Counted from the stretch's first letter, positions 12,030 through 29,409 are shown. The stretch: 64,000 bases of DNA from Gammaproteobacteria bacterium (GCA_028284465.1 JANQRR010000021.1:34876-98875), one strand, 5' to 3'. A program made the numbers and translations. The notes: generated by a model from the letters alone, not told the origin.

Positions 12030-13699
12030 GTCAATTAACGGGTACAGTAGTAAGCATTGATCCGAAAACTCAGTTTGCTGGTGTCATTTATATTAAAGTT
12101 AAATCAAACAAAGGCACCGATGAATATTATATTTCTAAAGTGGCGTTAAAAAAACAAAAGCTTGCAATTTTACAACGCACGCAATCGCAAGCAGGTCGAG
12201 CTTATTATCTTGATAATTCTACTATTGAAAAACTTGCAAAACATGCGCTTAATACCGAAATAAATAGTAAAAAAGCAGTCAGCATTACTTTTGAAAAAGC
12301 ATTAAAAAAATCCACAATAGTTTTTATAGAGACCAAACCATTATTGAAACATAAGCTTAAGCCACAGGCATTATTTGAAGTTCATACCTTAAAAAAGCCC
12401 GGAAAAATTATCACCCAAGGGATCGGCATTGGTAATAAAATAGCTCAAGGCAAGGTGCGAGTGATCACTGACCAACGGCAACTAACGTCGTTAAAAAAAC
12501 ATGAGATATTAGTAACATCAATGATTGAGCCACATTCACAAGCTATCATCAAACGTGCTGCAGCCATTGTGATGGAGCAAGGTGGTCGCACTTGTCATGC
12601 GGCTATCACGGCTCGCGAGTTGGGAATTCCAATGATAATAGGATGTTGTGATGCAAGCAAAATTTTAAAAACCGGTACCAATGTTACGGTAACATGTGAA
12701 CACAATCGAACGGGTTATGTTTATTCAGGCTTAGTTCCTTATGAGATTAAACACCTAGAACTTGCGAAGTTTAAGTCAATGCCTTATCCGTTGAGGATTA
12801 ATCTAGGTGATCCGCATAAAGCATTTGCTTACCAAGCAATTCCCAATGAAGGTGTTGGTTTAGCCCGACTCGAATTTATTATCGGTAATACCATTGGTAT
12901 TCATCCGCAAGCATTGTTAAATTACGCTAAGTTACCAAAAAGAGTGCAAACAAAAATTGCAAAAAGAACTGCGGCGTATGTTTCTCCCAGCGAATTTTAT
13001 ATTGAAAAATTACGTGAAGGTATTGCAACTATTGCTGCAGCATTTCATCCTAAGCCAGTTATTTTTAGATTTTCAGATTTTATTTCTAATGAATATCGCA
13101 ATTTATTGGGTGGTGAGTTGTATGAGCCGACAGAAAATAATCCTATGCTAGGTTTTCGTGGTGCTTCGCGATATTTGAATCCAGCGTTTCAGCCAGCTTT
13201 TGCGTTAGAGTGTGAAGCTTTTAAACGTGTGCGTAATGATATGGGTTTCACGAATGTAAAATTAATGGTGCCTTTTGTGCGTACTCTTGCCCAAGCTCAA
13301 GCAGTTATTAAATTGCTTACAAGTTATGGTTTGAAATACACTAAAAGATCAGATTTACAAATTTATATGAATTGTGAAGTACCATCAAACGCTATTCTTG
13401 CCGAAGAATTTTTGCAATACTTTGCTGGTTTTTCCATTGGCACTAATGATTTGACACAAATGACACTAGGTTTAGATCGTGATTCTAGTTTAATTGCAGA
13501 TTTGTTTGATGAACAAAATGCGGCAATTAAACTCTTGCTGCAAAAAATTATTAAAGCCTGTAAACAACAACATAAGTTTGTTAGCATCTGCGGACAAGCA
13601 CCCTCAGATCATATTGAATTTGCAAAATGGCTGATAGCACAAGGCATCGATAATATTTCGCTAAGCCCAGATGCAATCATTGATTGGCTATTTCATTAA
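12026..13699 (+). CDS. PEP-utilizing enzyme; PEP synthase (PpsA) C-terminal two-thirds homolog lacking the N-terminal ATP-binding domain
   Basis: Phosphohistidine motif GGRTCHAAITARELGIPMIIGC and C-terminal PEP/pyruvate-domain motifs (NEGVGLARLEFII, SIGTNDLTQMTLGLDRDS) match PpsA. Only about 120 aa of unrelated K-rich sequence precede them. The start overlaps the RND stop (ATGA). Confidence 0.75.
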   Translation: MSQLTGTVVSIDPKTQFAGVIYIKVKSNKGTDEYYISKVALKKQKLAILQRTQSQAGRAYYLDNSTIEKLAKHALNTEINSKKAVSITFEKALKKSTIVFIETKPLLKHKLKPQALFEVHTLKKPGKIITQGIGIGNKIAQGKVRVITDQRQLTSLKKHEILVTSMIEPHSQAIIKRAAAIVMEQGGRTCHAAITARELGIPMIIGCCDASKILKTGTNVTVTCEHNRTGYVYSGLVPYEIKHLELAKFKSMPYPLRINLGDPHKAFAYQAIPNEGVGLARLEFIIGNTIGIHPQALLNYAKLPKRVQTKIAKRTAAYVSPSEFYIEKLREGIATIAAAFHPKPVIFRFSDFISNEYRNLLGGELYEPTENNPMLGFRGASRYLNPAFQPAFALECEAFKRVRNDMGFTNVKLMVPFVRTLAQAQAVIKLLTSYGLKYTKRSDLQIYMNCEVPSNAILAEEFLQYFAGFSIGTNDLTQMTLGLDRDSSLIADLFDEQNAAIKLLLQKIIKACKQQHKFVSICGQAPSDHIEFAKWLIAQGIDNISLSPDAIIDWLFH

Positions 13700-13977
13700 A
13701 TATCGCCGTGTTTAGTTGGCGAACCCTTAGTGGTGTTCGGTGTCACTCCTAAGTCACGCATTGCTTTAAGAATATGATCAAGCAAGTCATAACGGTCATC
13801 AGTACATGGCATGTTTTCTTCATCAGCAACTTGCATATCAAGAGCATCGTGCTTCCAACTTTTTAAAATTTCAATCTTTTGATCACGTTTTAATTCTTTG
13901 CACGTCAGGACGTCATCTGGAGTTTTGAAAAAATGGCTAGGTTCAAGCTTGGCTTTTTCAATGTTGATTGTTCCCAT
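13696..13977 (-). CDS. hypothetical small acidic protein (93 aa)
   Basis: The ATG at 13977 is preceded by TAAGGAG at proper spacing, contributed by the end of repeat element B. No homolog recognised. Confidence 0.4.
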   Translation of the reverse strand: MGTINIEKAKLEPSHFFKTPDDVLTCKELKRDQKIEILKSWKHDALDMQVADEENMPCTDDRYDLLDHILKAMRDLGVTPNTTKGSPTKHGDI

Positions 13978-13989
13978 TACCTTTACTCC

Positions 13990-14143
13990 TTAATAACTTC
14001 GTCTTTTGGCTCAGAGCGTATTTATCGTCATTGCGAGGAACTTTGTTCCGAAGCAATCCAGAAACTGCAGTGGATTTCACGCTCAAGCCACGCAATAATA
14101 TCTCTGGATTGCTTCATCCCCTTCGGGTCCTCGCAATGACAAT
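13990..14143. repeat. palindromic intergenic repeat element, full copy B (unit, 40-nt core, inverted unit, plus terminal flank)
   Basis: Units are cgtcattgcgaggaactttgttccgaagcaatccaga and tctggattgcttcatccccttcgggtcctcgcaatgac. The core aactgcagtggatttcacgctcaagccacgcaataatatc is near-identical to the reverse-complement cores of copies F and G. The left flank is the reverse complement of the F/G right flank. Confidence 0.85.
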
Positions 14144-14262
14144 ATCCTTCATGGCGTCTCAATTAGGGTCTTTTTACAATTATAGCTTGAAAAATTGATA
14201 TGGTTATTAACACATAAAATATATTTATTTTTCATGGAGATAGAGAAGATAAGCTTGAAGGT

Positions 14263-14676
14263 TTAATCCCAAGGATTAATAATTTCAAGCAGTGGGTATT
14301 TAAAATCAGAAACGTTTCTGGTAGCCAGTGTTAAATCATGCCGCAATGCAGTTGCGGCGATCAAACTATCAATCGCTGAAACAGGTCGTTTAGCTTCTGC
14401 TTGTAATTTTCCCCAACAATCCACGACATCTTTATCGATAACCAGTATTCTATTATTAAACCAAGTAATTAATTCTTGCTCTAACCAAATTTTTAACTTT
14501 TCTTTGCGACGTGTGTTATCAGTTATTTTTTCTATCCCTTTACGAATTTCTCCTAACGTTAACACACTTAAATATAAATCTTCATCTGAAATTGTTTCCA
14601 TCCAGGCAATAACTTTTTTGTTAGGCTTAGATTTAACTATTTCTGAGATAACGTTGGTGTTAATTAAGTAACTCAT
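14263..14676 (-). CDS. vapC: type II toxin VapC (PIN-domain ribonuclease)
   Basis: The N-terminus MSYLINTNVISE is a PIN-domain signature with conserved acidic residues. It overlaps the upstream antitoxin by ATGA. Confidence 0.85.
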   Translation of the reverse strand: MSYLINTNVISEIVKSKPNKKVIAWMETISDEDLYLSVLTLGEIRKGIEKITDNTRRKEKLKIWLEQELITWFNNRILVIDKDVVDCWGKLQAEAKRPVSAIDSLIAATALRHDLTLATRNVSDFKYPLLEIINPWD

Positions 14677-14924
14677 AAATCGATATTCCGGCAGGTGGTT
14701 TTATTACGTTTTAAATCTAAATTTAAGCCAACCAAGGGTGATTTACGTAACATTTTTACTAATGAAATATGAGGCTTCTTAACAAGTTTATTGTAGTCTC
14801 TTCGTGAAATTACCACGGCAGTGGGTTCTCCACGAACAGTGATATCTTGAGGCCCTTGAGTAACAGCCAGCTTTATAACTTTGCTAAATTCCGCCTTTGC
14901 GTTCTGTAGTTGCCAGGTGTGCAT
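14673..14924 (-). CDS. vapB: type II antitoxin (Phd/YefM-type VapB)
   Basis: MHTWQLQNAKAEFSKVI...PTAVVISRRDY is a typical Phd/YefM antitoxin N-terminus. I place the start at the ATG at 14922-14924 with a GGAGG SD 6 nt upstream. The track ORF begins at an upstream TTG. Confidence 0.75.
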   Translation of the reverse strand: MHTWQLQNAKAEFSKVIKLAVTQGPQDITVRGEPTAVVISRRDYNKLVKKPHISLVKMLRKSPLVGLNLDLKRNKTTCRNIDL

Positions 14925-14938
14925 TTGATCCTCCAATA

Positions 14939-14959
14939 CTGACTAGTTATACTAGTCAG
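14939..14959. promoter_or_regulatory. perfect inverted repeat CTGACTAGT-TAT-ACTAGTCAG in the vapBC promoter region (putative antitoxin operator)
   Basis: A 9-bp perfect IR lies 15-35 nt upstream of the vapB start. Autoregulated type II TA promoters typically carry such palindromes. Confidence 0.4.
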
Positions 14960-15021
14960 AAGTATAGTGCGAATTTGATAGTTTGGCAATATTTTTCATA
15001 CTAGCTTGAAATCAAATTGAC

Positions 15022-15771
15022 TCAAACGCCTGTCACTTCATTCCAAATATCAACCTGTAATCTCGAGGTGTAATTCATTAAATGTTGTTTACAGGCTTCG
15101 ATTAACCAAGTCGATTTGGCTAGAATAGCTTCGCGGGTGCCACCTTCGGGCATTAGCCAAACTTTATTGCGAGGAATATTAAAAGGCTGGCAATAACGTG
15201 CAATAATTTCTTCGATATCGCCAGGCGATTGGATCACAAATTTAAATGCAGCAGATGGTAATGCAGCAAAGCTTTGCAAAATATCAGGATGATAAGCTTT
15301 TGGATCAGGCTCGCCACTGCTACGCAATTTTGGGCTTACATTAAATTGATTAACACGAATTTGTAATTCAGGTATTGGCAGTTTAGTGGCATTGGTTTCA
15401 ATTTCAATAAAGGGGGCTGGTGAAATACATTCATCAAGTTGTTTGATAAATTCAACGATTTTAGTTTGTTGCAATAATGGTTCGCCACCAGTGATCACCA
15501 AATGTGCGCCACACGCCAGTTTATCGAGCCAGCCGTGTTGCTGCCAATTGCCAATAATGTCGGCAAAAGTGAATTTATGGCCTTTGCTCCAAACTAACTT
15601 GCTATCGCAGCCAAGGTGTTCGCCAGTCGTTGGGTCTTTATAAGAAAACCCTGAGCATTGTAGATTACAGCCACTCAAGCGTAGAAAAACTGCTGGTTGA
15701 CCAGCGCACGGCCCTTCGCCTTGAATACTATAGAAAGTTTCGCTGGTATATAAATGGTTTTTAGTGTTCAT
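15022..15771 (-). CDS. queE: 7-carboxy-7-deazaguanine synthase (radical SAM), atypical Cys spacing
   Basis: ETFYSIQGEG and the overall QueE fold are present. The cluster cysteines are spaced C-x3-C-x15-C (GCNLQCSGF...HLGCDS) rather than CxxxCxxC. Confidence 0.8.
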   Translation of the reverse strand: MNTKNHLYTSETFYSIQGEGPCAGQPAVFLRLSGCNLQCSGFSYKDPTTGEHLGCDSKLVWSKGHKFTFADIIGNWQQHGWLDKLACGAHLVITGGEPLLQQTKIVEFIKQLDECISPAPFIEIETNATKLPIPELQIRVNQFNVSPKLRSSGEPDPKAYHPDILQSFAALPSAAFKFVIQSPGDIEEIIARYCQPFNIPRNKVWLMPEGGTREAILAKSTWLIEACKQHLMNYTSRLQVDIWNEVTGV

Positions 15772-15870
15772 AAGTTGAAGTTAATACTGGCAAATAACGA
15801 TAAAAAATATTACAATTCACAGTAACTTTGAGCATGATTTTACCTGAAAACTTACCTGTAAACCAATAGA

Positions 15871-16635
15871 ATGAGTATGTTTATAGTTATAGGCAATTAC
15901 GGTGATGAGACTATCGCTGTGATGCAATGGATAAAGCAACAAGGCTTAGCGCCAGTTACAGTGGTTTCGATCGATACCGGCTGGGCAGCACCCTGTTGGC
16001 AAACGCGAGTTGCGGCAGGCGAAGCATTTGCAAAGCGCTGTGGCTTCACCCCGGTGCGTTTACAAGCAAAATTAAATTTTGCTGATCTGGTGCGCGAACG
16101 CCAGCATTTCCCAAACCAAAAATATCAATGGTGCCCAGGCTTTTTAAAAGGCCTGCCGTTACTACAGTGGCTTGATGATGTTGATCCAAGTTGCGAAGCA
16201 ACGATTGTTTTAAGTAAGCGCCGGGCCGCATCGCGTGCGCAAGCCAATTTGCCAGAATATATTGCTGAAAGTGAGCATCATGGGCAGCGTCGCGTTTGGC
16301 ACCCATTATATGACATTGATAATGCTGCGCGAGATGCGCTAGTAACAGCAGCAAAATTTCCATTGTTGCATCATCGTAGCTTAGAGTGTGATCCATGTAT
16401 ACACAATAGTGATGCTGATTTTTTACGAATGGAGCCTCACAGTATCGCTAAAATTAAATCTCTAGAGACAGAAGTAGGTGAGCCAATGTTTGTACCAGCG
16501 AATTACGCTGGTGCTAAAGGCATTGTTGCAGTGATTGAGTATATCAAACAACGTCAAACTAAATTAAATTCAAGTGATAATTATCAAGAATTATTTGATA
16601 AGGGTTGTGGTTCGCCCTTTGGTTGTGGACAATAG
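15871..16635 (+). CDS. PAPS reductase / PP-loop ATP-pyrophosphatase superfamily protein with degenerate P-loop
   Basis: The N-terminus VIGNYGDETIAV stands where the family has SGGxDST. WCPGFLKGLPL resembles the family CC..K..PL motif. It is divergent from queE. Confidence 0.45.
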   Translation: MSMFIVIGNYGDETIAVMQWIKQQGLAPVTVVSIDTGWAAPCWQTRVAAGEAFAKRCGFTPVRLQAKLNFADLVRERQHFPNQKYQWCPGFLKGLPLLQWLDDVDPSCEATIVLSKRRAASRAQANLPEYIAESEHHGQRRVWHPLYDIDNAARDALVTAAKFPLLHHRSLECDPCIHNSDADFLRMEPHSIAKIKSLETEVGEPMFVPANYAGAKGIVAVIEYIKQRQTKLNSSDNYQELFDKGCGSPFGCGQ

Positions 16636-16668
16636 TATTTAATCAAGTGAAGCTAGTGGAGAAGGTTA

Positions 16669-16992
16669 ATGGCATATATAGTGACGGAGCAGTGTATTAA
16701 ATGCAAATATACTGATTGTGTCGAAGTTTGCCCGGTGGATTGCTTTCATGAAGGCCCGAATATGTTAGTAATCGATCCGGATGAATGTATTGATTGTGCG
16801 CTATGTGAACCAGAATGCCCAGTTGATGCAATCGTTGCTGAAGATGAATTACCTGCCGATGCCAAGCAATTTCTAACCCTAAATGCTGAGCTCGCACAAA
16901 AATGGCCAGTGATCAGTGTTGCCAAGGATGCACCAGCAGATGCAGATGATTGGAAAGGAGTCGCCAATAAATTGCAGCACTTAGAGAAATGA
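16669..16992 (+). CDS. fdxA: 7Fe ferredoxin (FdxA type)
   Basis: [18 protein letters not shown]...[12 protein letters not shown] is near-identical to the Azotobacter-type FdxA cysteine pattern. Confidence 0.92.
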
Positions 16993-17648
16993 ATATATTA
17001 GCGATAGAAACTTCAAGCCCGCAATGCTCGGTAGCATTGTTACATGATGCAGCCATTATTGAATTAAATGATATCACGCCGCGAACACATGCTCAGCAAA
17101 TTTTGCCAATGATCCAACAATTATTAACTCAAGCCGATCTTAAATTGAACCAACTCGATGCACTAGCATATGGTAAAGGCCCTGGTAGCTTTACAGGTTT
17201 ACGGATCGGAGCTGGTGTAATCCAAGGTATTGCATTGGGTTCAGACATTCCTGTCATCCCTATTTCTTCATTACAATGTTTAGCACAAACAGGATATGCT
17301 AAACACCAACAATCGCGTATCATTAGTTGTATTGATGCACGTATGCAAGAAGTGTATTGGGGTATGTTTGAATTAGATCCAGTCACAGGATTAATGCAGC
17401 TAAATGGCGATGAAGCGGTGACGCCACCGGAAATGATCAATTTGCCAACAGCCGCATGGTATGGTGTCGGTAATGGTTGGCACTATCCGCAGCTAGGCGC
17501 ACGATTTGCAGCTGACAATTATGATCTAAATTGTTTACCAACAGCTCGAGCAATGCTGGCTTTAGCGAAAATTAAGTTAACCCTAGGTGAAACTACCACA
17601 GCAGAATTTTGTTATTCTACCTATATACGCGATAAAGTCGTTAGATAG
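16989..17648 (+). CDS. tsaB: tRNA threonylcarbamoyladenosine biosynthesis protein TsaB
   Basis: [10 protein letters not shown]...[11 protein letters not shown] is the TsaB/YeaZ signature. The start overlaps the fdxA stop (ATGA). Confidence 0.85.
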
Positions 17649-17669
17649 GAAATAAATGGAGGAGGCTCT

Positions 17670-20600
17670 ATGAAACGAGCATCAGATGCCGAATGTCGAC
17701 AAGAAATCATCTCCAAATTAGTTGCGATTGCAGAAAAAAAACTTAGTAAGAAAAAAACAGCGTTATTTGCTGAATTTGTTAAGCAATATTACTCCCATGT
17801 GGCACTTGAAGATTTATATTCACGCAGCATCATCGATTTATATGGCGCAGTGATATCGCATTGGAATTTCATGTATGAACGCAAAAAACATGAAGTTAAA
17901 TTACGAATTTTCAATCCAACATTTGAAGAAGATGGTTGGGAGTCACGACATACTGTGATCCAATTGGTTCATGATGATATGCCATTTTTAGTTGACTCAG
18001 TTACCATGGAGTTAAATCGCCTGGGATATACAATTTATTTAATTATTCATGTTGGTGGCATAATTGTACATCGTAATAACAAACATCAGTTAAATAAAAT
18101 TTTTCCGGTAGATTATTCTAGCGACATCATTTCTGGCAAGATCAATACCGTTAGTTTAAAAGAAGAGGAAGAATTACAAAGTGGAATTGCAGAAGCACCA
18201 ATTTATATTGAAATTAATCGTGTTACCGATCCAGCAGTTATTACCAACATAGAGAAAAATATAATACGCATTTTAAAAGATGTTCGAGTTGCAATTGATG
18301 ATTGGGACAAAATGCGTGGTAAAGTTTATGAAATTGTTGATGAACTAGAAAGTTGTCGGCATGTATTGCCTAATATTTCTGAGCTAGATGAAACTAAAGA
18401 ATTTTTACGTTGGATGGTCAATGATCATTTTACTTTTCTCGGTTGTCGTGATTATAAATTAATTGGTCAAGACGAAGAAATGGCATTGAAAATAGTCCCC
18501 GGTTCAAGTGCAGGGGTTTTGCGTAATGAAAAGTCGAGTAAACAAATTCGTAAATTTAGCGAAATGCCGGAAATTATTCGTGATTTAGCATTATCTAATC
18601 AAATTTTAATTATCGCTAAATCTAATACTTTAGCAACAGTACATCGTCGAGTTTACACAGAATTAATTAGTATTAAACGCTTCGATAGTGAAGGCAATAC
18701 TATTGGTGAGCGTAGGTTTGTAGGTTTATTTACTTCAACAGCATACAGTAGTCGCCCTAAAGATATTCCGTTTATTCGCGATAAAGTGCGTCAAGTCATG
18801 TTGCGATCACATTTATCATTACGCGGTCATTCAGGTAAAGCACTATTACATATTTTAGAAACGTATCCGCGTGATGATTTATTTCAAGCAAGTGTGCAAG
18901 AAATTTATGATACTTGCATTGAGATCATGCATATGCAAGAGCGTCCACAGATCCGTTTGTTTGCTCGCAGAGACATTTATAATCGTTTCATGTCATGTAT
19001 GGTTTACGTGCCTAGAGAATTATACAACACAGAATTACGCCAACAAATGCAAGCAGTGTTAGCCGAAGCATTTCAAAGTGCAGAAGTCACGACGACCACA
19101 CAGTTTTCTGAATCTATTTTGGCTAGAATTCATTTTATGTTGCATCTCGATCAAACGAAAGTGATCGATTATGATTTAAAAGCTATTGAAAAACGTTTAA
19201 TTGAAATAGGGCGATCGTGGAAACATGATCTGCATGATAACTTATGTGAATATTATGGTGATGAACAAGGTAATCGTTTAGCAGCAAAATACTATGATGC
19301 ATTCCCTGTAGGTTATCGTGAAACATTTATTGCAGCTTTGGCTATCAATGATATTCGCCATTTAGAAAAATTATCAGAAGATAATACGCTAGAAATGAGC
19401 TTATATGTTCCCAGTGATTCACCACCAGAAACAGTACGCTTTAAACTATACCATGAAAATCTTACGATACCTTTATCAGATGTGTTACCCGTGCTGGAAA
19501 ATATGGGGATGCGCGTAATTGGTGAAGAACCTTATGAAATTCGCACCAAGGATAAGCGAGTTTATTGGATAAATGATTTTTACATGACGAGTGTTAAACA
19601 TGAAATTTTAGATATCTCTGTGATTAAAAGCGTTTTCCAAGAAGCATTTCGTAATATTTGGTTTGGTTGTGCTGAAAACGATGGGTTTAATTACTTAGTG
19701 ATTGGTGCTGAATTATCTTGGCGCGAAACCAGTTTGTTGCGTGCCTACGCAAAATATTTTCGTCAAATTGGTTTTACTTTCAGCCAATCATATATTGAAG
19801 AAACATTGATGTCGAATCCAAGTATTGCAGCGCAATTAGTTGATTTGTTTAATATGTACTTTGATCCACAGCAAATTGAAACTTCTGAAGCTAAAGTGAA
19901 GCAACTCGAAAAAAGTATTGAAGAATCTCTAGATTCAATTGCTAATTTAGATCAAGATAGGATCTTACGACGATTTTATGAAATTATTAAAGCAACAGTA
20001 CGTACTAATTTCTTTCAAATAGAAAAATCTGGGCGATATAAACCTTATATTTCATTTAAACTTGATTCGCGTAATATTCCTGAATTACCACTACCATTGC
20101 CGTTGTATGAAATTTTTGTCTATTCACCTAAATTTGAGGCGGTGCATTTGCGTAGTGCTAAAGTTGCTCGTGGTGGTATTCGTTGGTCAGACCGTCGAGA
20201 AGATTTTCGTACCGAAATACTTGGCTTGATGAAAGCACAACAAGTTAAAAATTCGGTAATTGTTCCGCAAGGTGCTAAAGGTGGTTTTGTTCCGAAGAAT
20301 TTGCCTATCGATGGTAATCGTGAAGAAATTTTAGCAGCGGTGATAGCGTGTTATCGTAATTTTATCAAAGGTATGTTAGATATTACTGATAACTTAAAAT
20401 CAGGCAAAGTGATCCCGCCTAAAAATGTCGTGCGTTATGATGAAGATGATCCTTATCTAGTTGTTGCTGCGGACAAAGGAACTGCAACCTTTTCTGATAT
20501 TGCAAATAGCATTGCCAAAGAATATGGTTTTTGGTTAGGTGATGCGTTTGCATCAGGAGGCTCTACTGGCTATGACCATAAAAAAATGGGGATCACTGCG

Positions 20601-22586
20601 CGTGGTGCTTGGGAATCGGTAAAACGACATTTTCGTCATTTAAATCTTGATATTCAAGCTAACAATTTTACCGTGATAGGGATCGGTGATATGGGTGGTG
20701 ATGTGTTTGGCAATGGTATGTTGTTATCACGTCATATTAAATTAATAGCTGCGTTTAATCACTTACACATATTTCTTGATCCAAAACCAAAGCCAGATGT
20801 TAGTTATCGTGAGCGCCGCCGCTTATTTAAGTTATCACGATCAACTTGGGCTGATTATAATCCCAAGCTTATTTCTCGTGGTGGTGGTGTCTATCGGCGC
20901 TCCGCCAAATCGATCCGCGTATCAGCACAAGTTAAAGAAGTATTTGGATTAAAGAAAGATGTGTGGGTGCCTAATGATTTAATTCGTGAAATGCTCAAAG
21001 CAGAAATAGACTTATTGTGGAATGGTGGTATTGGAACTTTTGTAAAATCTTCATTAGAAGCGAATATAAACGTTGGGGATCGTACTAATGATTCAATTCG
21101 AGTTGATGCCGATGAATTGCAATGTCGGGTTGTTGGTGAAGGCGGTAACTTAGGCTTTACACAACTCGCGCGGGTTGAATATGAATTGATGGGAGGGATG
21201 ATCTACACTGATTTTATCGATAATTCTGCCGGCGTTGATTGTTCTGACCATGAAGTTAATATAAAAATCTTATTAAATGAAGTCGTCCGCAAAAAAGAAT
21301 TAACAAAAAAACAACGTAATAAATTATTAGCAGAAATGACGGCTGAGGTTGCTGAATTAGTATTATCGAACAATTACCATCAAACTCAAGCGTTAGAAAT
21401 GTCAATGCATGATCCAGTAGCAACGATTAATCTATACAATCGTTATATTGTTGAACTCGAGCATGATGGAGAATTAAACCGCGAATTAGAATTCTTGCCA
21501 ACCGAAAAAGATTTATTAGAACGTAAAGCAGTAGGAAGAGGTTTCACTCGCCCAGAAATTTCAGTGTTGCTAGCCTATAGTAAAAATATTTTAAAAGAAA
21601 AAATCTTAGCGTCAGATATCCCTGATAACAAAGGTTTAGATTGGATATTAGAATCAGCATTCCCCAAACCTTTACGTACAAAATATAATAACTATTTACA
21701 AAAGCATAGCTTACGACGCGATATTATTGCCACCCAATTGAGTAATGTTGTTATTAATGATATGGGTAGCTCATTTATCCATCGCATGAAAAATGAAACG
21801 GGTGCCCCTGAAAGCTCTATTGTTAAAGCGTATTTAATTTCACAATATATATTTGATCGTGATGGTTTATGGGAAGATGTCCATTCACTAGATAATAAAA
21901 TTGATTCTAGAGTGCAGATCAGAATGATGTTGCTAGCTTATCGGTTAATTTTGCGAGGCACTCGCTGGTTTTTACGAAATCGACGTTATAAATTAGATAT
22001 TTTGCAATATCAACAATATTTCGTTGCAGACGTGAAAAAACTTGCTGGAATGGTAAATAAATTAATAATCGGTTCGGAGCGCGATAATGTTGATAAGATA
22101 ATACAAATTTTTGTAGAAGCAGGCGTTGATGAAACTATTGCGCAAAGGATAGCAGTTACTGATGTATTATTTCCAGCACTCGATATTATTGATGCAGCAA
22201 AAAAGAATAACTTGAATTTAGCAAAATTTGCTGAAGTCTATTATACCTTAGGTGATATGTTAGAGTTAAGCTGGATCCGTCAGCAAGTGCGGGATTTCAG
22301 TTTTGAAGGTTACTGGGAAGCATTAGCACGGTCGGCATTACGTGATGATATTGATAAACAACAATGTTTATTAGCGGTTTATGCGATGAAATATAAAACC
22401 CGTACTCGTAATACTGAAAAACGGATCCAAGAATGGTTGGAGTCGCATCGTAGTTTAGTTGATCGTTGGTTTAGTATTGTTGCTGATCTGCGTGGCACTA
22501 GCACGCCATCGTTTACAATGTATCTAGTCGCAGTGAGGGAGCTAGCTGATTTGACGCAAGTAGAGCCGATGGTTGAGGTTGCGTGA
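17670..22586 (+). CDS. gdhB: NAD-specific glutamate dehydrogenase, large (about 180 kDa) class
   Basis: 1638 aa. The central Glu/Leu/Phe/Val dehydrogenase catalytic region (KGGIR, GxGxxG NAD site around GIGDMGGDVFGNGML) matches the large NAD-GDH family. Confidence 0.88.
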   Translation: MKRASDAECRQEIISKLVAIAEKKLSKKKTALFAEFVKQYYSHVALEDLYSRSIIDLYGAVISHWNFMYERKKHEVKLRIFNPTFEEDGWESRHTVIQLVHDDMPFLVDSVTMELNRLGYTIYLIIHVGGIIVHRNNKHQLNKIFPVDYSSDIISGKINTVSLKEEEELQSGIAEAPIYIEINRVTDPAVITNIEKNIIRILKDVRVAIDDWDKMRGKVYEIVDELESCRHVLPNISELDETKEFLRWMVNDHFTFLGCRDYKLIGQDEEMALKIVPGSSAGVLRNEKSSKQIRKFSEMPEIIRDLALSNQILIIAKSNTLATVHRRVYTELISIKRFDSEGNTIGERRFVGLFTSTAYSSRPKDIPFIRDKVRQVMLRSHLSLRGHSGKALLHILETYPRDDLFQASVQEIYDTCIEIMHMQERPQIRLFARRDIYNRFMSCMVYVPRELYNTELRQQMQAVLAEAFQSAEVTTTTQFSESILARIHFMLHLDQTKVIDYDLKAIEKRLIEIGRSWKHDLHDNLCEYYGDEQGNRLAAKYYDAFPVGYRETFIAALAINDIRHLEKLSEDNTLEMSLYVPSDSPPETVRFKLYHENLTIPLSDVLPVLENMGMRVIGEEPYEIRTKDKRVYWINDFYMTSVKHEILDISVIKSVFQEAFRNIWFGCAENDGFNYLVIGAELSWRETSLLRAYAKYFRQIGFTFSQSYIEETLMSNPSIAAQLVDLFNMYFDPQQIETSEAKVKQLEKSIEESLDSIANLDQDRILRRFYEIIKATVRTNFFQIEKSGRYKPYISFKLDSRNIPELPLPLPLYEIFVYSPKFEAVHLRSAKVARGGIRWSDRREDFRTEILGLMKAQQVKNSVIVPQGAKGGFVPKNLPIDGNREEILAAVIACYRNFIKGMLDITDNLKSGKVIPPKNVVRYDEDDPYLVVAADKGTATFSDIANSIAKEYGFWLGDAFASGGSTGYDHKKMGITARGAWESVKRHFRHLNLDIQANNFTVIGIGDMGGDVFGNGMLLSRHIKLIAAFNHLHIFLDPKPKPDVSYRERRRLFKLSRSTWADYNPKLISRGGGVYRRSAKSIRVSAQVKEVFGLKKDVWVPNDLIREMLKAEIDLLWNGGIGTFVKSSLEANINVGDRTNDSIRVDADELQCRVVGEGGNLGFTQLARVEYELMGGMIYTDFIDNSAGVDCSDHEVNIKILLNEVVRKKELTKKQRNKLLAEMTAEVAELVLSNNYHQTQALEMSMHDPVATINLYNRYIVELEHDGELNRELEFLPTEKDLLERKAVGRGFTRPEISVLLAYSKNILKEKILASDIPDNKGLDWILESAFPKPLRTKYNNYLQKHSLRRDIIATQLSNVVINDMGSSFIHRMKNETGAPESSIVKAYLISQYIFDRDGLWEDVHSLDNKIDSRVQIRMMLLAYRLILRGTRWFLRNRRYKLDILQYQQYFVADVKKLAGMVNKLIIGSERDNVDKIIQIFVEAGVDETIAQRIAVTDVLFPALDIIDAAKKNNLNLAKFAEVYYTLGDMLELSWIRQQVRDFSFEGYWEALARSALRDDIDKQQCLLAVYAMKYKTRTRNTEKRIQEWLESHRSLVDRWFSIVADLRGTSTPSFTMYLVAVRELADLTQVEPMVEVA

Positions 22587-22611: not shown

Positions 22612-25600
22612 CTAGGTGCTAGGGCAAAAGAGATATTCATTTATATTGTTTCCATTAGGTTCTTCTGACTGTTTTGTGTCTGGAATTGGTATAGTGGTTC
22701 TGGGTTGTTTACCTTTTGTTCTAGCATCAAAAAATAAATGACCACAAGCAATAAATTTTTTAAGGTAAGTTTCAGATGTATATTTGGGGTTTTCTAAGGT
22801 TGTCCTAAAAGCTATAGACCCATCGAGAGTGGCAGCAAGTAGTTTCCAAGCATATATGATTTCTTCGATTTTTATATTTATCTCATTATTATTTGTGGTT
22901 GTTAAATTTTGAGAAAGTTTTTTTTGTAAGGTAGTAAATGAAGGAATATAGTTAGCACTGCGTGCTGGAGGAGCGCTGATCAAAGAATAAATATTATTCT
23001 GTAAATCAGTGCCATTTTTAGGTGCATCTTTTAGGATAATTTCGAGATTATTTTTTACATATTTTTGAATAAAGCCAAGATGAAGTGTAATAAACAATAC
23101 ATCAATAGTACGAGATTCTAATATAGGTTTGCCAATAAAATTACGGTGAAGGTTTTCTACTATATTATTAAAGTTTTTATTGGTAATGGTCAAAGGAACA
23201 TTGAGTAAATTATTAAATTCAATTATTTCTGATTGTTCAGTATCTTCCGGCCAAGAATAAGCGTTAGAACTAGAGAAGCTTGTTTCTGCCCAAGCTTTAT
23301 AATGCTCTATGCATTTTAAGAATTTTTTTGTATCTTTACCTGGTGGTAAATTTTGTTTTATCTTAGTGATCTGAGTACATAAAGCTAAAATTAAAGTGCA
23401 GAAATTCTTTTCTGCTTTTAGGATACCTCGTAGAACTAATACATGCGGTGGCCCTTTAGATGAATGAGGTTTATCAGCTGTTGCTTTCCTTTTCCCTTTT
23501 TTATCCATTTCAGTGTCGTCAAATAATGCTTTTTTTACTTTTGGGGTTACAGAACTTTTCTTTCGACGAGATACACGCTTATATGGTGTGCCAATCGAAC
23601 TCGTCATTTTTTTTAGTACCGGTGTAGTGGCGGTAGGATTTTTAGTTGGCGTTGTTGGTGTATGATCTGTTGCGCTGGTACTTAAAACTTGTTCAGATAA
23701 AATAGATTGAATTTGTGCTTGCATAGCCTGTATACTATCGCTAGCTTCACCTTGCCATTCTTGTAATGCCATAAGCTGCGTTAGTAAGAATCCACGTTCC
23801 TTTGCATGTGCTAATGATGTTTGTTGTTGTGTTCTAACTAGCTCAGACAGTAGCCTCACCTGTTGATCAACTGCGGCTAGGCCAGGAGTTATGACTCCAA
23901 TCCCAGGCTTAAGATCTGCTGTAAGCGTAGTTTTAACATGCTTCGTTATTAATAATTGATTTAATGTTTTAAACTCGCCATTGAGTAATTCTATTTTCTT
24001 TGTAAAAGGATTTTTTTTCCAAGTGCTGGTATTAGGTTTAAGTATTTCTGGTAAATAGTAATTTTCAATAGTATAAGATAAACTTTGATTCGGGCTTGGT
24101 GGGGCTGCAAGTTCTAATAATACAGCTTTGGTGCGTTCAAATAATTGATTACTTAATTCTTCGATGCTACCAGAGGCTACTTGAGCAAACATTTTATTGC
24201 AGCGTAAAATAAGCCGTAACGTTAATAATTTTGCAAATAAGCCAACCTCAGTACCTGTCATTGTTAATTCTGCTAAAGTATCACAAGATTGTTGAGTAAG
24301 ATATTGCCCACACATGCTGACAATATTGGAAGTTGCACTTATTATGGGAGCGCCTACAGGGGTGATCATGCCAGCAATTGTAAAGTACTTGTTTAATTTA
24401 CCAAATTTACTGCTAACTGAGACATCACCACTTTTAGCAACTCTGGCGGCTTCTAATTGTATTGATAATCGTTTGCAAAGTTTTATGTATAATTGATCCA
24501 AACTTTTGTTATTAAGCTGAGAAATTTTTTGTTCTAAAGTTTTAATGTCGATAGTAATTGAATGTGCATGGATTAATGTTTTAAGTTTATTGCAATCGAT
24601 CTCTGAAAGATTAGGGATTTTTGCTTCTAAGTTGTCGATATCAATGCGCAAAGCTTGCATTTGTTCATCAAAACTTGATGAACTGCTGCCAGTGGCTGAG
24701 TATTTATAATCGTCTAATATAAATTTTACTTGCTCTTCTATTTTTTCATAGGTTCTTGAGGTTTTACTTTGTGTTTGTGATAAATTTTCATCTTCTTTCA
24801 ACGCTGCTAAAGCATCATTGTTATTTATTGTTGTTTGAATATGTTTTAGTTCAGGAATTAATTGTTCCTTCTCTTTTGAACGAAAACCTAAAAACCCTGC
24901 TAAAGATTTGGCGCGTTTTTTAATAAATGCATTATGATTTTCAATTATATTAGTTATGCGAATTTGTGTGCCGTCAGCCTTGACAGTCGCATTACAATCT
25001 TGAAATTTAGTAATTTCTGAAATTAAGTCTTTGACGATAGGCAATACGCGGCCTTGCCTTTTTTCCATCGATTGTAGGGTATAAATAAAGTGGATCTTGC
25101 TTTCACCTGTAAGATGGCCTTTTTTAAAATGAAATAAAATCTTGCGTCCCAATCTAGCTGTGAGTTCTTCCATGTCTGGGATTTTATGTAGGGCATGAAA
25201 TACCAATACTAATTGACTGAGATCACTTTCATTAAGCACTTTATTAATAAAAATATTAACAATAGAGTTGATGTAGTTTTTATAAGTTGAACGAGTTGCA
25301 AAATGGTATTTTTTTAATTGTGGATAGCTTGCGATCACAGGTAAAACATAGTCACTCCATTTCAGTGGTGTGGCCTCTGCTTGTTCTCCATCTTCGGGGA
25401 ATCCAGTTAACAACTCTCGAGCCTTATTGCCTGCTACCCAAAATTTCCACCATGATCGTTTAATATCAAATAATTGCTTGCTAACTATGCCAATAATTGC
25501 AGTGATTTGTTGTGAATTTTCTTCAATAGTTTCCGCTAAACAATCTGGTAGCATAGGTGATGTGGCTTTTGCCGCTGCACCATTCTTTACGGTGTTTGGT

Positions 25601-26406
25601 AGCATAGGCGCTAAAATAACTCGAATGCGCAATAAAGCGCGCATTAAGTCAGTATTACTTTGCAAATTTGCCAAAGCAAGTTTAGGTGTTATTGTATTGT
25701 TACTTGTATCTTCTAGATTTCTTATGATTGTATCTAATTCTTCAGATGATCTATCCTTAAATTTTCCAATAATCGTATTTAATAGTGTTGTTAATTCATC
25801 AACTTTTATTTTTTTATTATTAATGGCAGTCGTGATCTCAGATAAAATAGAACTAGAAACAATAGAATATTGTTCATGATTTGAATTTTTTAATGCATAT
25901 GAACAATGCGCGCGTGCATAACGTAATAAAGACAGTTTTTCATTAAGACGCTTTACTGTCAGAGGGGATGCGCTGGCATTATAAAATTTTTCTAGCCGAA
26001 TTTGTTTTTGTTTTTCAGTTTTTTTATCGTTAAATAAAAATCTTAAAACATAATTGATTTTAGTTTGTAAAGTTTTAATGCTTTTTTGTAAATCTTTATC
26101 GGTAGTGCGCTTGAAATATTGGCATAATCTGTAATGATATTTTAAACAATATAATAATTCATGTGCTAAAGTTATCGCTTGTTCTTTATTATTATATGTA
26201 GAGCTTGACGGTGCCAATGATGTTCTATTCGGATATATTTCATCGTATTTTTTCTTAAAATAATTATAATCAACTTCAGTCAAAATATTATTATTAATTT
26301 GATCGATTGCATAAGCTAAAAATTCTTTAGCATATGTTACTTTTTGTTTATCATTTCTACGTTGGTCAAAAGCTTCGATTATTATAGTTAGATCACCTTT
26401 AGCCAC
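22612..26406 (-). CDS. large hypothetical protein (1264 aa), effector-like
   Basis: Intact ORF, N/K/I-rich, with no recognisable catalytic motif. It has an internal P/T-rich linker (HTPTTPTKNPTATTP) followed by a basic patch (KRVSRRKK...KKGKRK). No signal peptide. Confidence 0.6.
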   Translation of the reverse strand: MAKGDLTIIIEAFDQRRNDKQKVTYAKEFLAYAIDQINNNILTEVDYNYFKKKYDEIYPNRTSLAPSSSTYNNKEQAITLAHELLYCLKYHYRLCQYFKRTTDKDLQKSIKTLQTKINYVLRFLFNDKKTEKQKQIRLEKFYNASASPLTVKRLNEKLSLLRYARAHCSYALKNSNHEQYSIVSSSILSEITTAINNKKIKVDELTTLLNTIIGKFKDRSSEELDTIIRNLEDTSNNTITPKLALANLQSNTDLMRALLRIRVILAPMLPNTVKNGAAAKATSPMLPDCLAETIEENSQQITAIIGIVSKQLFDIKRSWWKFWVAGNKARELLTGFPEDGEQAEATPLKWSDYVLPVIASYPQLKKYHFATRSTYKNYINSIVNIFINKVLNESDLSQLVLVFHALHKIPDMEELTARLGRKILFHFKKGHLTGESKIHFIYTLQSMEKRQGRVLPIVKDLISEITKFQDCNATVKADGTQIRITNIIENHNAFIKKRAKSLAGFLGFRSKEKEQLIPELKHIQTTINNNDALAALKEDENLSQTQSKTSRTYEKIEEQVKFILDDYKYSATGSSSSSFDEQMQALRIDIDNLEAKIPNLSEIDCNKLKTLIHAHSITIDIKTLEQKISQLNNKSLDQLYIKLCKRLSIQLEAARVAKSGDVSVSSKFGKLNKYFTIAGMITPVGAPIISATSNIVSMCGQYLTQQSCDTLAELTMTGTEVGLFAKLLTLRLILRCNKMFAQVASGSIEELSNQLFERTKAVLLELAAPPSPNQSLSYTIENYYLPEILKPNTSTWKKNPFTKKIELLNGEFKTLNQLLITKHVKTTLTADLKPGIGVITPGLAAVDQQVRLLSELVRTQQQTSLAHAKERGFLLTQLMALQEWQGEASDSIQAMQAQIQSILSEQVLSTSATDHTPTTPTKNPTATTPVLKKMTSSIGTPYKRVSRRKKSSVTPKVKKALFDDTEMDKKGKRKATADKPHSSKGPPHVLVLRGILKAEKNFCTLILALCTQITKIKQNLPPGKDTKKFLKCIEHYKAWAETSFSSSNAYSWPEDTEQSEIIEFNNLLNVPLTITNKNFNNIVENLHRNFIGKPILESRTIDVLFITLHLGFIQKYVKNNLEIILKDAPKNGTDLQNNIYSLISAPPARSANYIPSFTTLQKKLSQNLTTTNNNEINIKIEEIIYAWKLLAATLDGSIAFRTTLENPKYTSETYLKKFIACGHLFFDARTKGKQPRTTIPIPDTKQSEEPNGNNINEYLFCPST

Positions 26407-26743
26407 GATAACATCTCCTTAAATTATTATGTTTCTTGCGTATGTATACCAACTAGAACTGTTAACAAACAATTCTAAATTGTTATAACGCAATAATGTT
26501 GGAAGGCTAAGTTATTTTAAGACTGTTTCTCTCCGCGCAAAGCGTTGTTCTTTTTATTATGTTGCATTGCTATAATTAACATAACATAAACTTTTAAATA
26601 AAAAAAGCAAATAAAAACATATAATTATTTGAGAGAATAAATAATGATCTATTAGTATAATTATAGTCGCAATAAAACAACGACTGCGTTATAATTTGTT
26701 TTGTTCGTATGCAAATCGTTTAATTAATGATAGGTAATTTGTT

Positions 26744-27424
26744 ATGGGTATGACACGTTCTTTCTTTAGTATGTTCGGGCCATCGCCAATTCGTCCATTA
26801 CAACAACACATGGCAAAAGCATTTGCTTGTGCAGAAATGTTAAAACCATTCTTTGAACAAGTGCTCAAACAAAATTGGACTGCAGCAGAAAAATATCAAA
26901 GTCAAATTGTTCAGCTTGAAAACGACGCGGATGAATTAAAAAAGAATTTACGTTTGCAATTACCGAAAGGATTGTTTTTACCAGTGCCACGATCAGACAT
27001 TTTAGAATTATTAAGTATTCAAGACAGCGTAGCGAATAAATCTAAAGATATTGCTGGCATGATCATCGGTCGGCGTATGCATATTCCTGAGAGTATCGCT
27101 GAGGCATTTAGCCAATACATCCAACGCAGTATTGATGCAGCAGCGCAGGCGAATAAAGCCATTCATGAGCTTGATGAATTGCTGGAAACAGGTTTTCGTG
27201 GTCGGGAAGTCGAGATTGTAGAAGAAATGATCTTGAAGCTAAATGACATTGAACATGATACCGATGAAATGCAGATTAGTATTCGTCGATCATTATTTGA
27301 ATTGGAATCAACATTGGCACCGATCGATGTCATGTTTCTTTATAAGATAGTTGATTGGGTTGGTGATCTTGCCGATCGAGCGCAAGGTGTGGGTGGGCGT
27401 TTGCAAATGTTACTTGCGCGATAA
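26744..27424 (+). CDS. DUF47/TIGR00153 family protein (PhoU-like, putative phosphate-transport accessory regulator)
   Basis: 226-aa all-helical protein with the characteristic DUF47 N-terminus (F..FGPSP...L..H) and PhoU-like repeats. Confidence 0.7.
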   Translation: MGMTRSFFSMFGPSPIRPLQQHMAKAFACAEMLKPFFEQVLKQNWTAAEKYQSQIVQLENDADELKKNLRLQLPKGLFLPVPRSDILELLSIQDSVANKSKDIAGMIIGRRMHIPESIAEAFSQYIQRSIDAAAQANKAIHELDELLETGFRGREVEIVEEMILKLNDIEHDTDEMQISIRRSLFELESTLAPIDVMFLYKIVDWVGDLADRAQGVGGRLQMLLAR

Positions 27425-27631: not shown

Positions 27632-27997
27632 TCAAAATGTCATTTGCTGACGTTTCATCACCCATTCAAGCAGTTTATTAGGTTGTTTAGTGTATTTAGT
27701 AAAAACATTAAAAATTGCAATACCCAGTGTTTGTTGATCATAAGGTTTTAACAAGACATAACCATGCGTTAAAGGCTTATTCAATGTCACTGTGCCCCAA
27801 TCACATACAGTCTTGCCGCAGTAACCCCAAGCATGCATGACAATATGGTGGTTTTGTTTGCTGATAATAACTTTTTTTAGCAAGCGATTGTTATGTTCCA
27901 TGTTATGCCAAATTCCAGTGATACTAGCAGCTTCTACATTTGCACAGATCAATAAGAAGATTGTTAAGTAAAAAAACGCATGCAGCAATCGTTTCAT
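27632..27997 (-). CDS. hypothetical secreted protein (121 aa)
   Basis: N-terminal signal peptide (LLICANVEA/AS). The start overlaps the permease stop (ATGA), which suggests an operon. Confidence 0.5.
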   Translation of the reverse strand: MKRLLHAFFYLTIFLLICANVEAASITGIWHNMEHNNRLLKKVIISKQNHHIVMHAWGYCGKTVCDWGTVTLNKPLTHGYVLLKPYDQQTLGIAIFNVFTKYTKQPNKLLEWVMKRQQMTF

Positions 27998-29409
27998 TGG
28001 GAAGTTTCCTTGTTACCACAATATTGAGTTAACTTATAAATTACAATCGGCAATACACAAAATATGATCATACCAGCAAATAAGATGAGTTCAAAACGTT
28101 GGCTGTCGATTATTTGCAATTGTGATGGTGGGAAAAAGCCGACAACAATGCCGAAGATACAAGCTAAAGTTCCAATCCCGCTTACTAACCAAACACCAAT
28201 GTTGCCGCCAGGAATCTTGTAAGCTCGAGGCGTTTTTGGTTGGCTAACACGTAATTTAATTGCAGCAGCAAACATGCCGATATACATTAATAAAGCTAAT
28301 TGTGCAGTCATCGCAGTTAACAACCAATATGAGCTATTAATTGTTGGTAATAACAAAAACACCATAGCAAGAATGCTGACAAGAATAGCTTGCATGATCA
28401 GTACAGGCACTGGTGCACCGTAACGATTCACCTTACCAAAAATAGCTGGAATACTACCATCGCGACTGGCGATCAATAAACCTTTAGTAGGCCCAATGAT
28501 CCAAGCTGAAATTCCACTGATCCCACCAATAACAATTAAAATAGCAGTGGCTGGCAGTAGCCAGTGTAAATGAAAAGTGTGTAGAAAAATTCCAAATGCA
28601 TCGATAAGCCCAGTCACTAAACTTAATCGCGTATGCGGCACCACAATAGCGATGGCTAAGCTGGCAAGCACCAGAGAAATATAAATAATCAAAGTTGAAA
28701 ACAGTAATGCTCGCGGATAATCGCGCTGCGGGTTATGCACTTCTTCAGCATGTGCGGCTGACATTTCCATCCCGACTAATCCGAACATGATCCCTAACAG
28801 TAATACCATATTATGAAATGAGTATGATTGCGGAAATAAGGTGGTGACGTTCATTTGAATTTGTAAGGAATTGCCTTGTGCAAACCAAATGATCCCAAGA
28901 ATAATAATAAATATCATTGGTAATAATGTGCCAAACAGAGCGCCTAAGGTAGTAACCCAGCTGGAAATGCGCATTCCAAAGCAGTTGATAAGCGTTATTG
29001 CCCAGAATAACACCAATACTGTGCTGACTAAATAAACTTTGTTGTGTGCTAGTTGTGGTTCAATCACATAAGCTAGAGTAGCAACGATAAAAGCAAGTAC
29101 TGTTGGATACCACACGACATTGTAAATCCACTGAAACCAAATCACTAGAAACCCAATAGGTTTACCGAATGCGGTGCTGGTCCAAACATAAACACCGCCG
29201 GTTTTAGGCCAGCCAGTAGCTAATTCTGCGGCGACGAGTGCAGAAGGAATGAGAAAGATTAATGCAGCAATAGTGTAATAAAATACAGCAGTAAAACCAT
29301 ATTCGGCGCTGATTGCTAAAGTCCGTAAGCTATCAACCGCAATAACATTGATCATGACTAAAGCAAAAACACTCAGGACACGGCGTGGACGAACGTAAGC
29401 TGTATTCAT
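27994..29409 (-). CDS. APC-family amino acid permease
   Basis: 471 aa with about 12 TM helices and the APC/amino-acid-polyamine transporter pattern. Confidence 0.85.
   Translation of the reverse strand: MNTAYVRPRRVLSVFALVMINVIAVDSLRTLAISAEYGFTAVFYYTIAALIFLIPSALVAAELATGWPKTGGVYVWTSTAFGKPIGFLVIWFQWIYNVVWYPTVLAFIVATLAYVIEPQLAHNKVYLVSTVLVLFWAITLINCFGMRISSWVTTLGALFGTLLPMIFIIILGIIWFAQGNSLQIQMNVTTLFPQSYSFHNMVLLLGIMFGLVGMEMSAAHAEEVHNPQRDYPRALLFSTLIIYISLVLASLAIAIVVPHTRLSLVTGLIDAFGIFLHTFHLHWLLPATAILIVIGGISGISAWIIGPTKGLLIASRDGSIPAIFGKVNRYGAPVPVLIMQAILVSILAMVFLLLPTINSSYWLLTAMTAQLALLMYIGMFAAAIKLRVSQPKTPRAYKIPGGNIGVWLVSGIGTLACIFGIVVGFFPPSQLQIIDSQRFELILFAGMIIFCVLPIVIYKLTQYCGNKETSQ

Follow-up and report, generated by a model that had tools for sequence, protein, structure and literature searches.

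A lineage-specific 1264-residue gammaproteobacterial protein with a highly diverged C-terminal domain related to DH (RhoGEF) domains: a putative modular effector

What kind of protein is encoded by the largest open reading frame (ORF) without a family match in a 64,000-nucleotide stretch of a Gammaproteobacteria bacterium genome (GCA_028284465.1, JANQRR010000021.1:34876-98875; hereafter the window)? The gene lies on the minus strand (22612..26406) and comprises 1264 codons and a stop. A preliminary description, made from the DNA sequence, had proposed a candidate secreted effector, possibly directed to the nucleus, or a novel multi-domain protein. Comparison with a small set of very distant relatives reveals a central core common to all of them and a C-terminal region homologous to a verified DH (RhoGEF) domain. 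The most likely account, at a probability of roughly 0.5, is that of a modular effector translocated into a host, in which a DH-derived module would be directed at Rho GTPases and a basic patch would act as a host-cell targeting element.

Direct searches place the protein in no established family. No significant match was obtained against Pfam (E ≤ 1), NCBIfam, PDB sequences, PADLOC or PHROGs, or in a tblastn search of plasmids. The earlier remark that no enzymatic motif can be recognised is borne out by the five family and structure resources, which return no family of any kind, enzymatic or other. Matches to Lzipper-MIP1, RXLR_WY, WXG100, UVSSA_N and other weak candidates lie far under the cut-offs and were discarded as noise, and a phage or anti-phage defence protein was rejected, there being no PADLOC or PHROG match. 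A word-indexed search of a 5.8-billion-cluster index retrieved the query only, which forms a singleton there. Exhaustive phmmer scanning of 1.84 billion representative proteins with residues 1–1200 as query yielded only two relatives, P0002 (1245 residues, E = 4e-8) and P0003 (1068 residues, E = 5e-6); a third, a 1299-residue tandem paralog of P0002, was discovered at the P0002 locus. Designation as a lineage-specific, novel multi-domain protein agrees with this outcome, and neither the family nor the relative searches produced a confident homology to a bacterial housekeeping family. Word-indexed searches with a three-sequence alignment of the core found nothing and with P0002 found P0002 alone, a scan of genome contigs (GTDB representatives) with the target gave no match, the source genome itself included, and screening of metagenomes with the alignment of the core added no member.

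The shared core spans residues 373–794 of the target and is present in P0002, its paralog and P0003. A hidden Markov model built from P0002 and the paralog matches this region with an E-value of 2.6e-14, compared to 1.9e-5 for the best of 500 shuffles, and BLASTP gives 7e-17 against P0002 and 6e-12 against P0003. Identity between the target and its relatives amounts to 24–27%. The best-conserved block (residues 640–770) includes a semi-hydrophobic stretch of 24 residues at positions 676–699, with a mean hydropathy of about 1.3 as calculated by hand. In contrast to the core, the N-terminal 370 residues of the relatives are unrelated to those of the target: residues 1–372 reach Smith-Waterman z-scores of only 1.3–2.6 against the relatives' N-termini, and a Pfam search of this region at E ≤ 10 returns nothing. 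On the basis of these alignments, the core of about 420 residues is proposed to define a very small, undescribed family.

Beyond the core, the relatives provide access to the C-terminal region. Residues 1007–1164 of P0002 match the Pfam family RhoGEF (PF00621) with an E-value of 7e-13, and the paralog scores 28.5 bits against the same family at a cut-off of 27.6; P0003, which ends in a Ser-rich acidic tail, lacks a DH domain. In a pairwise BLASTP comparison, residues 984–1167 of the target align collinearly with residues 998–1162 of P0002 (1e-4). A phmmer comparison of the target with the P0002 DH domain gives 15.5 bits, which ranks at the top of 2001 sequences, the best of 2000 shuffles reaching 7.7 bits. 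The corresponding Smith-Waterman score is 77 versus 32 ± 5 for shuffles (z = 8.7), whereas four control segments of the target score 31–46 and thus stay at background. Homology to a verified PF00621 member extends across the whole domain and is established via P0002 alone.

Conserved residues of DH domains were located in an alignment of five sequences, comprising the three bacterial domains and those of human ITSN1 and P-Rex1, whose sequences were taken from a PDB search. Only three columns are invariant, corresponding to Glu999, Arg1149 and Tyr1153 of the target. We take Glu999 to be the glutamate of conserved region 1 (CR1), and Arg1149 and Tyr1153 to be the arginine and tyrosine of the 'QR..RY' motif in conserved region 3 (CR3) of Dbl-family guanine-nucleotide exchange factors. 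By transitive homology, it is fairly probable that residues 984–1195 form a DH-derived domain, although the target is not filed as a member of PF00621 and an exchange activity appears doubtful from its sequence. The features of the gene and its surroundings are as follows.

22612..26406, minus strand: whole coding sequence with GTG start (ORF call and translation)
26415..26420, minus strand: Shine-Dalgarno sequence AAGGAG, 8 nt 5' of the GTG (read from the sequence)
25291..26406, minus strand: N-terminal region, residues 1–372, without detectable relative
24025..25290, minus strand: core, residues 373–794 (about 420 residues), common to the target, P0002, its 1299-residue paralog and P0003 (hidden Markov model, BLASTP and exhaustive scan)
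24097..24489, minus strand: best-conserved core block, residues 640–770, AARVxxSGDV ... PVxSG ... GQY ... LxELTxTGT..LFAE (alignments)
23692..23889, minus strand: Q-rich segment, residues 840–905, probable coiled coil as judged from the sequence; relatives similar at the same position
23620..23682, minus strand: P/T-rich linker, residues 909–929 (STSATDHTPTTPTKNPTATTP) (P+T count versus shuffles)
23467..23613, minus strand: polybasic patch, residues 932–980, immediately preceding the DH-like domain, with three overlapping matches to the pattern of a bipartite nuclear localisation signal (pattern scan)
22822..23457, minus strand: DH (RhoGEF)-like domain, residues 984–1195, highly diverged, with Glu999 (CR1), Arg1149 and Tyr1153 (CR3) kept (homology to the P0002 DH domain)
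22615..22719, minus strand: C-terminal tail, residues 1230–1264, ...TKQSEEPNGNNINEYLFCPST, mildly acidic, hydrophobic residues close to its end; candidate type IVB secretion signal (sequence inference)
26407..26743, no strand assigned: AT-rich divergent intergenic region of 337 nt, common to the DUF47 gene (ORF bounds and sequence)

Taken together, this architecture can be read as that of a large soluble effector, whose producer would be a Legionellales-like gammaproteobacterium associated with a host; the NAD-GDH encoded next to the gene has its nearest relatives, among the matches listed, in Legionella and in Legionellales metagenome-assembled genomes, with 49–53% identity. A type IVB system of the Dot/Icm type is the most plausible route by which the protein may be delivered into its eukaryotic, possibly amoebal, host, with the short acidic tail as a candidate secretion signal. 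It would be composed of a unique region (residues 1–372), the core (residues 373–794), a Q-rich coiled-coil-like segment (residues 840–905), a presumably disordered linker that is first P/T-rich and then polybasic (residues 909–980), and a domain of probable DH descent (residues 984–1195). In the host, Rho-family GTPases could be the partners of the DH-derived domain, which would act on them by nucleotide exchange or, since it is degenerate, by binding or sequestering them; the polybasic patch might steer the protein to acidic membranes, in place of a PH domain, or to the nucleus.

A number of results weigh against this interpretation. No match to PF00621 is found in the full-length protein (E ≤ 1), in the C-terminal 282 residues (E ≤ 1) or in residues 984–1200 (E ≤ 10), and the target likewise goes undetected by purpose-built DH profiles and by hhalign. 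Its DH-like region shows no pairwise signal with the DH domain of the paralog or with human DH domains (z ≤ 1.3 for the latter), so that the DH assignment hangs on a single bridging sequence. Within CR3, the glutamine is replaced by alanine, the second arginine by asparagine and LLL by PSF, and therefore exchange activity may be lost. AlphaFold2 models of the C-terminal domain and of the core are all-helical; with values of 39.5 and 35.7, respectively, in the predicted local distance difference test, both are of too low confidence to count, and a Foldseek search with the C-terminal model gave only meaningless matches to helical bundles. With respect to delivery, no genes for Dot/Icm or another secretion system are present in the 64-kb window, and tandem PmrA-like or CpxR-like sites are missing upstream of the target. 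The last 21 residues of the tail (TKQSEEPNGNNINEYLFCPST) contain glutamates at positions −17, −16 and −8 and Leu, Phe and Cys at −6 to −4; with three glutamates only, the tail is far weaker than the Glu-rich or E-block C-terminal signals recognised by DotM (PMC5802825). Finally, the taxonomic placement derived from NAD-GDH is rough. Profile searches of the PDB with a two-sequence C-terminal alignment and with the P0002 DH region alone gave nothing.

The divergence of CR3 brings up the question of whether the gene still has a function at all. It might be what is left of a once-functional DH effector after degeneration of the C-terminal domain, with no selected function retained; the loss of canonical CR3 residues and the failure of all profiles to detect the domain are in line with such a decay, and there are no orthologs in which selection could be measured. 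The state of the gene argues otherwise. The reading frame runs uninterrupted for 3.8 kb, and the occurrence of a 1264-codon frame in DNA of 33% guanine-plus-cytosine (GC) content rules out a chance ORF. The first in-frame methionine occurs only at about residue 255, so that the GTG at position 26406 is a sensible start; it is preceded by a strong ribosome-binding site. Moreover, codon usage is near the window average (Kullback-Leibler divergence 0.13), and CR1 Glu as well as CR3 Arg and Tyr have been retained. We therefore regard a decaying gene without selected function as quite improbable. On the opposite strand, a GTG-initiated ORF of 169 codons (25370-25879, plus strand) lies inside the gene and is most likely spurious.

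The translocated effector with a DH-derived module that we favour is expected to be soluble, and the composition of the protein is compatible with this. None of the 19-residue Kyte-Doolittle windows exceeds 1.4, so that neither a signal peptide nor a membrane segment is apparent, and the protein can be classified from its sequence as soluble and probably mostly helical. A membrane or Sec-exported protein was ruled out since a hydrophobic segment is absent. Overall GC content is 0.330 and falls to 0.228 at third codon positions, values among the lowest of the 47 genes of the window. The bias towards N, K and I noted previously holds only roughly: K (9.8%) and I (8.5%) are high, but N accounts for 6.6%, and with L at 11.2% and T at 8.6% the protein is better described as rich in L, K, T, I and S. 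Internal repeats and paralogs within the window were looked for and none were found, and the DNA contains no repeats of note.

Whether a soluble protein of this kind leaves the bacterium can be judged by circumstantial evidence. In favour of the proposed candidate secreted effector are the DH domains of two relatives, the C-terminal homology, the lack of a signal peptide or membrane segment, the low GC content and the mildly acidic tail; against it stands the lack of a secretion system in the 64 kb analysed. The same lack, together with the missing proof of a secretion signal, would suit a fast-evolving, helical scaffold that stays in the bacterial cytoplasm in a cytoskeletal, chromosome-associated or regulatory role and in which the DH likeness is irrelevant or a relic. 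Such a scaffold would also be consistent with the probable helical structure including coiled-coil-like stretches, as suggested by the sequence and by the low-confidence all-helical models, with the native codon usage and with a basic patch able to bind DNA. Housekeeping scaffolds, however, are normally conserved, whereas only three distant relatives of the target exist among about 15 billion proteins. In two of these there is a eukaryotic signalling domain for which no substrate is known in bacteria, and the target matches the F-box protein encoded in the window in its low GC content. For these reasons a non-secreted scaffold seems unlikely.

The gene context is directed at eukaryotes. Near the end of the window (61885-62805, minus strand), a protein of 306 residues is encoded whose N-terminus matches the Pfam F-box-like family (1.3e-15) and whose gene has the lowest GC content of the window (0.312). 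F-box proteins are a characteristic sign that a bacterium injects proteins into eukaryotic cells, and this eukaryotic-like protein is, as judged from its sequence, probably injected. Together with the target and a gene for a 1135-residue orphan, the F-box gene has the lowest GC content of the large genes (0.31–0.33 versus about 0.40); several large orphans of the window share this low level. The 1135-residue orphan (49630-53037, plus strand) matches no Pfam or NCBIfam family, has a GC content of 0.331 and is a singleton; it represents a second large effector-like gene. The target, called the largest non-housekeeping ORF in the preliminary description, is the largest ORF of the window without a family match, with this orphan as the runner-up.

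Further clues to the fate of the protein lie in the segment between the coiled-coil-like stretch and the DH-like domain. The two sequences highlighted in the preliminary description, HTPTTPTKNPTATTP and KRVSRRKKSSVTPKVKK...KKGKRKATADK, correspond to residues 915–929 and 943–979, respectively, and both the P/T-rich linker and the basic patch resembling a nuclear localisation signal (NLS) were found to be present and above chance expectation. P and T peak at 13 of 20 residues, a value equalled in none of 2000 shuffles, and K and R peak at 15 of 40 residues, equalled in 34 of 2000. For the bipartite NLS pattern, defined as two basic residues, a spacer of 10–12 residues and at least three basic residues in five, six starts are observed in the protein versus 0.85 expected, and none of 2000 shuffles reaches six; the starts in the patch are at residues 932, 943 and 958. 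P0002 possesses an equivalent of the P/T linker, the P/S/T-rich stretch ISPINTLSTPGSSDPFEATP, located right before its DH domain, and the order of core, coiled-coil-like stretch, P/S/T linker and DH domain is identical in both proteins. Accordingly, the P/T-rich stretch of the target is an ordinary linker between domains. The basic patch, on the other hand, is unique to the target: P0002, its paralog and P0003 contain no bipartite match, and their K+R content peaks at 10–11 per 40 residues at other places in the protein. Since identity to the relatives is only about 25% and none of them is an ortholog, their lack of the patch is a weak test of its conservation.

From the patch it might be argued that the protein is a nucleomodulin, i.e. 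that residues 932–980 constitute a true bipartite NLS read by importin-α and that the translocated effector acts in the host nucleus. In eukaryotic RhoGEFs such as Ect2 and Net1, an NLS immediately precedes the DH domain. In the target, matches to the pattern are in excess proteinwide, and the three overlapping ones within residues 932–975 fall into a P/T-rich and probably exposed linker. Precedent for nuclear activity is provided by Legionella effectors such as SidN (PMC11696984). Yet both the patch and the pattern are missing from all three relatives, the K+R enrichment taken alone is moderate for a K-rich protein, the pattern is permissive, and affinity for acidic membranes or nucleic acids is another property of polybasic stretches. 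For the nuclear targeting proposed earlier, the pattern match holds, but the distribution of the patch weakens the idea, and we consider a nucleomodulin possible, on the unlikely side. A PH domain normally comes after a DH domain; as none follows here, the patch could equally be an anchor to acidic membranes. By analogy with Ect2 and Net1, one might further imagine that the core family belongs to deep Legionellales-like bacteria in which it has repeatedly been paired with DH domains, that an NLS was gained N-terminal to a remodelled DH domain, and that nuclear Rho signalling is manipulated or Rho GTPases or their regulators are sequestered in the nucleus; such a scenario is very improbable.

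With the translocated effector carrying a DH-derived module as the favoured interpretation, comparison with known Rho regulators shows both shared and deviating traits. In domain terms, there is a parallel to eukaryotic Dbl-family RhoGEFs, represented by intersectin-1 (PDB 1KI1) and P-Rex1 (PDB 5FI0). The CR1 glutamate and the CR3 arginine and tyrosine are in register with those of the target, the domain size of about 200 residues is similar, and the target domain is, like its counterparts, probably all-helical; however, direct similarity is not significant, and the DH-like domain of the target is not followed by a PH domain. The basic element next to the domain, if it serves in targeting, would be reminiscent of Ect2 and Net1. 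Unlike the DH domains of P0002 and its paralog, the DH-like domain of the target does not pass the Pfam threshold. Legionella species have been described to possess DH/RhoGEF proteins, which are listed there as eukaryotic-like (PMC4256840). By description, to which our comparison is confined, these resemble the target in being presumed injected effectors of amoeba-associated Legionellales bacteria that contain a eukaryotic DH domain; they differ in being recognised directly by the domain model, whereas the target is recognised only via a bridging relative. The target would, in addition, share injection and Rho GTPases as proposed target with the SopE and WxxxE (Map, IpgB) RhoGEF mimics, and neither family is among its Pfam matches. 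These mimics are small, type III-delivered proteins whose folds are unrelated to DH.

If the proposed function is correct, a tiny and very divergent family joins those bacterial proteins that have borrowed the eukaryotic DH RhoGEF domain, none of which, to our knowledge, has been functionally characterised. The target would moreover exemplify the drift of a domain to a point where profile searches miss it and a bridging relative alone reveals it. In genomes of a poorly sampled intracellular lineage, one more putative effector restricted to that lineage is to be expected and is not in itself surprising. Of main value are the hidden relationship to DH, the new core family of 420 residues and the unexplained basic patch; for the core and the 370-residue N-terminus no counterpart is known, and new activities may reside there.

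P0002 is encoded on a 2.9-Mb metagenomic contig (locus L081), where the genes for P0002, its 1299-residue paralog, an orphan of 971 residues and an amino-acid permease occur in sequence. The three large tandem genes occupy positions 10001-20822 (plus strand) of this locus, the 971-residue protein is unrelated to the other two, and a HicB-like antitoxin gene precedes them. An amino-acid permease is also encoded near the target (27994-29409, minus strand) and is 48.6% identical to the L081 permease, which could be a conserved linkage or a coincidence. When 80 GDH loci were searched with the target by tblastn, neither a homolog nor synteny was detected.

The window itself is an ordinary chromosomal stretch, which contains among others dnaE, an AcrB-type pump gene, priA, aroC, asd, accD, a folC-like gene and truA. 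Family-less proteins, among them some of 1135, 673, 482 and 311 residues, are interspersed. At 90% identity, GDH, chorismate synthase, the DUF47 protein, the F-box protein and the 1135-residue orphan each form a singleton cluster in a set of about 15 billion proteins, and hence the source organism appears to have no close sequenced relative. The orphan status of the target would in part be due to this circumstance.

The preliminary description had placed the gene between housekeeping genes, with NAD-GDH upstream and a DUF47 gene across an AT-rich gap of about 340 bp. Both neighbours and the gap, which measures 337 nt, were verified, but NAD-GDH (17670..22586, plus strand, 1638 residues) is convergent with the target and not located upstream, the two stop codons being 25 nt apart. 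On the other side, the target and the DUF47 gene (26744..27424, plus strand) are divergently transcribed, and the intergenic region between them (26407..26743) presumably holds the promoters of both genes. A scan for promoters and terminators gave matches at chance level for both, those of the sigma-70-like type in this region being weak. A PiT phosphate transporter commonly accompanies members of the DUF47 (PhoU_div) family; here the gene stands alone, with no following ORF of at least 80 residues on the same strand. Upstream of the target's region lies a row of minus-strand genes formed, in their direction of transcription, by a 482-residue orphan (29649-31097), the amino-acid permease and a 121-residue orphan (27632-27997).

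Elsewhere in the window, no Rfam or tRNA features were detected. The 673-residue orphan (41690-43711, minus strand) abuts, and lies upstream of, an FGE-sulfatase-like (SUMF1-type) gene (40886-41689, minus strand), with which it may form an operon. In a stretch of low GC content (0.333), the gene at 14263-14676 (minus strand) encodes a protein with a PIN domain (1.8e-15), which is probably a toxin of the VapC type.

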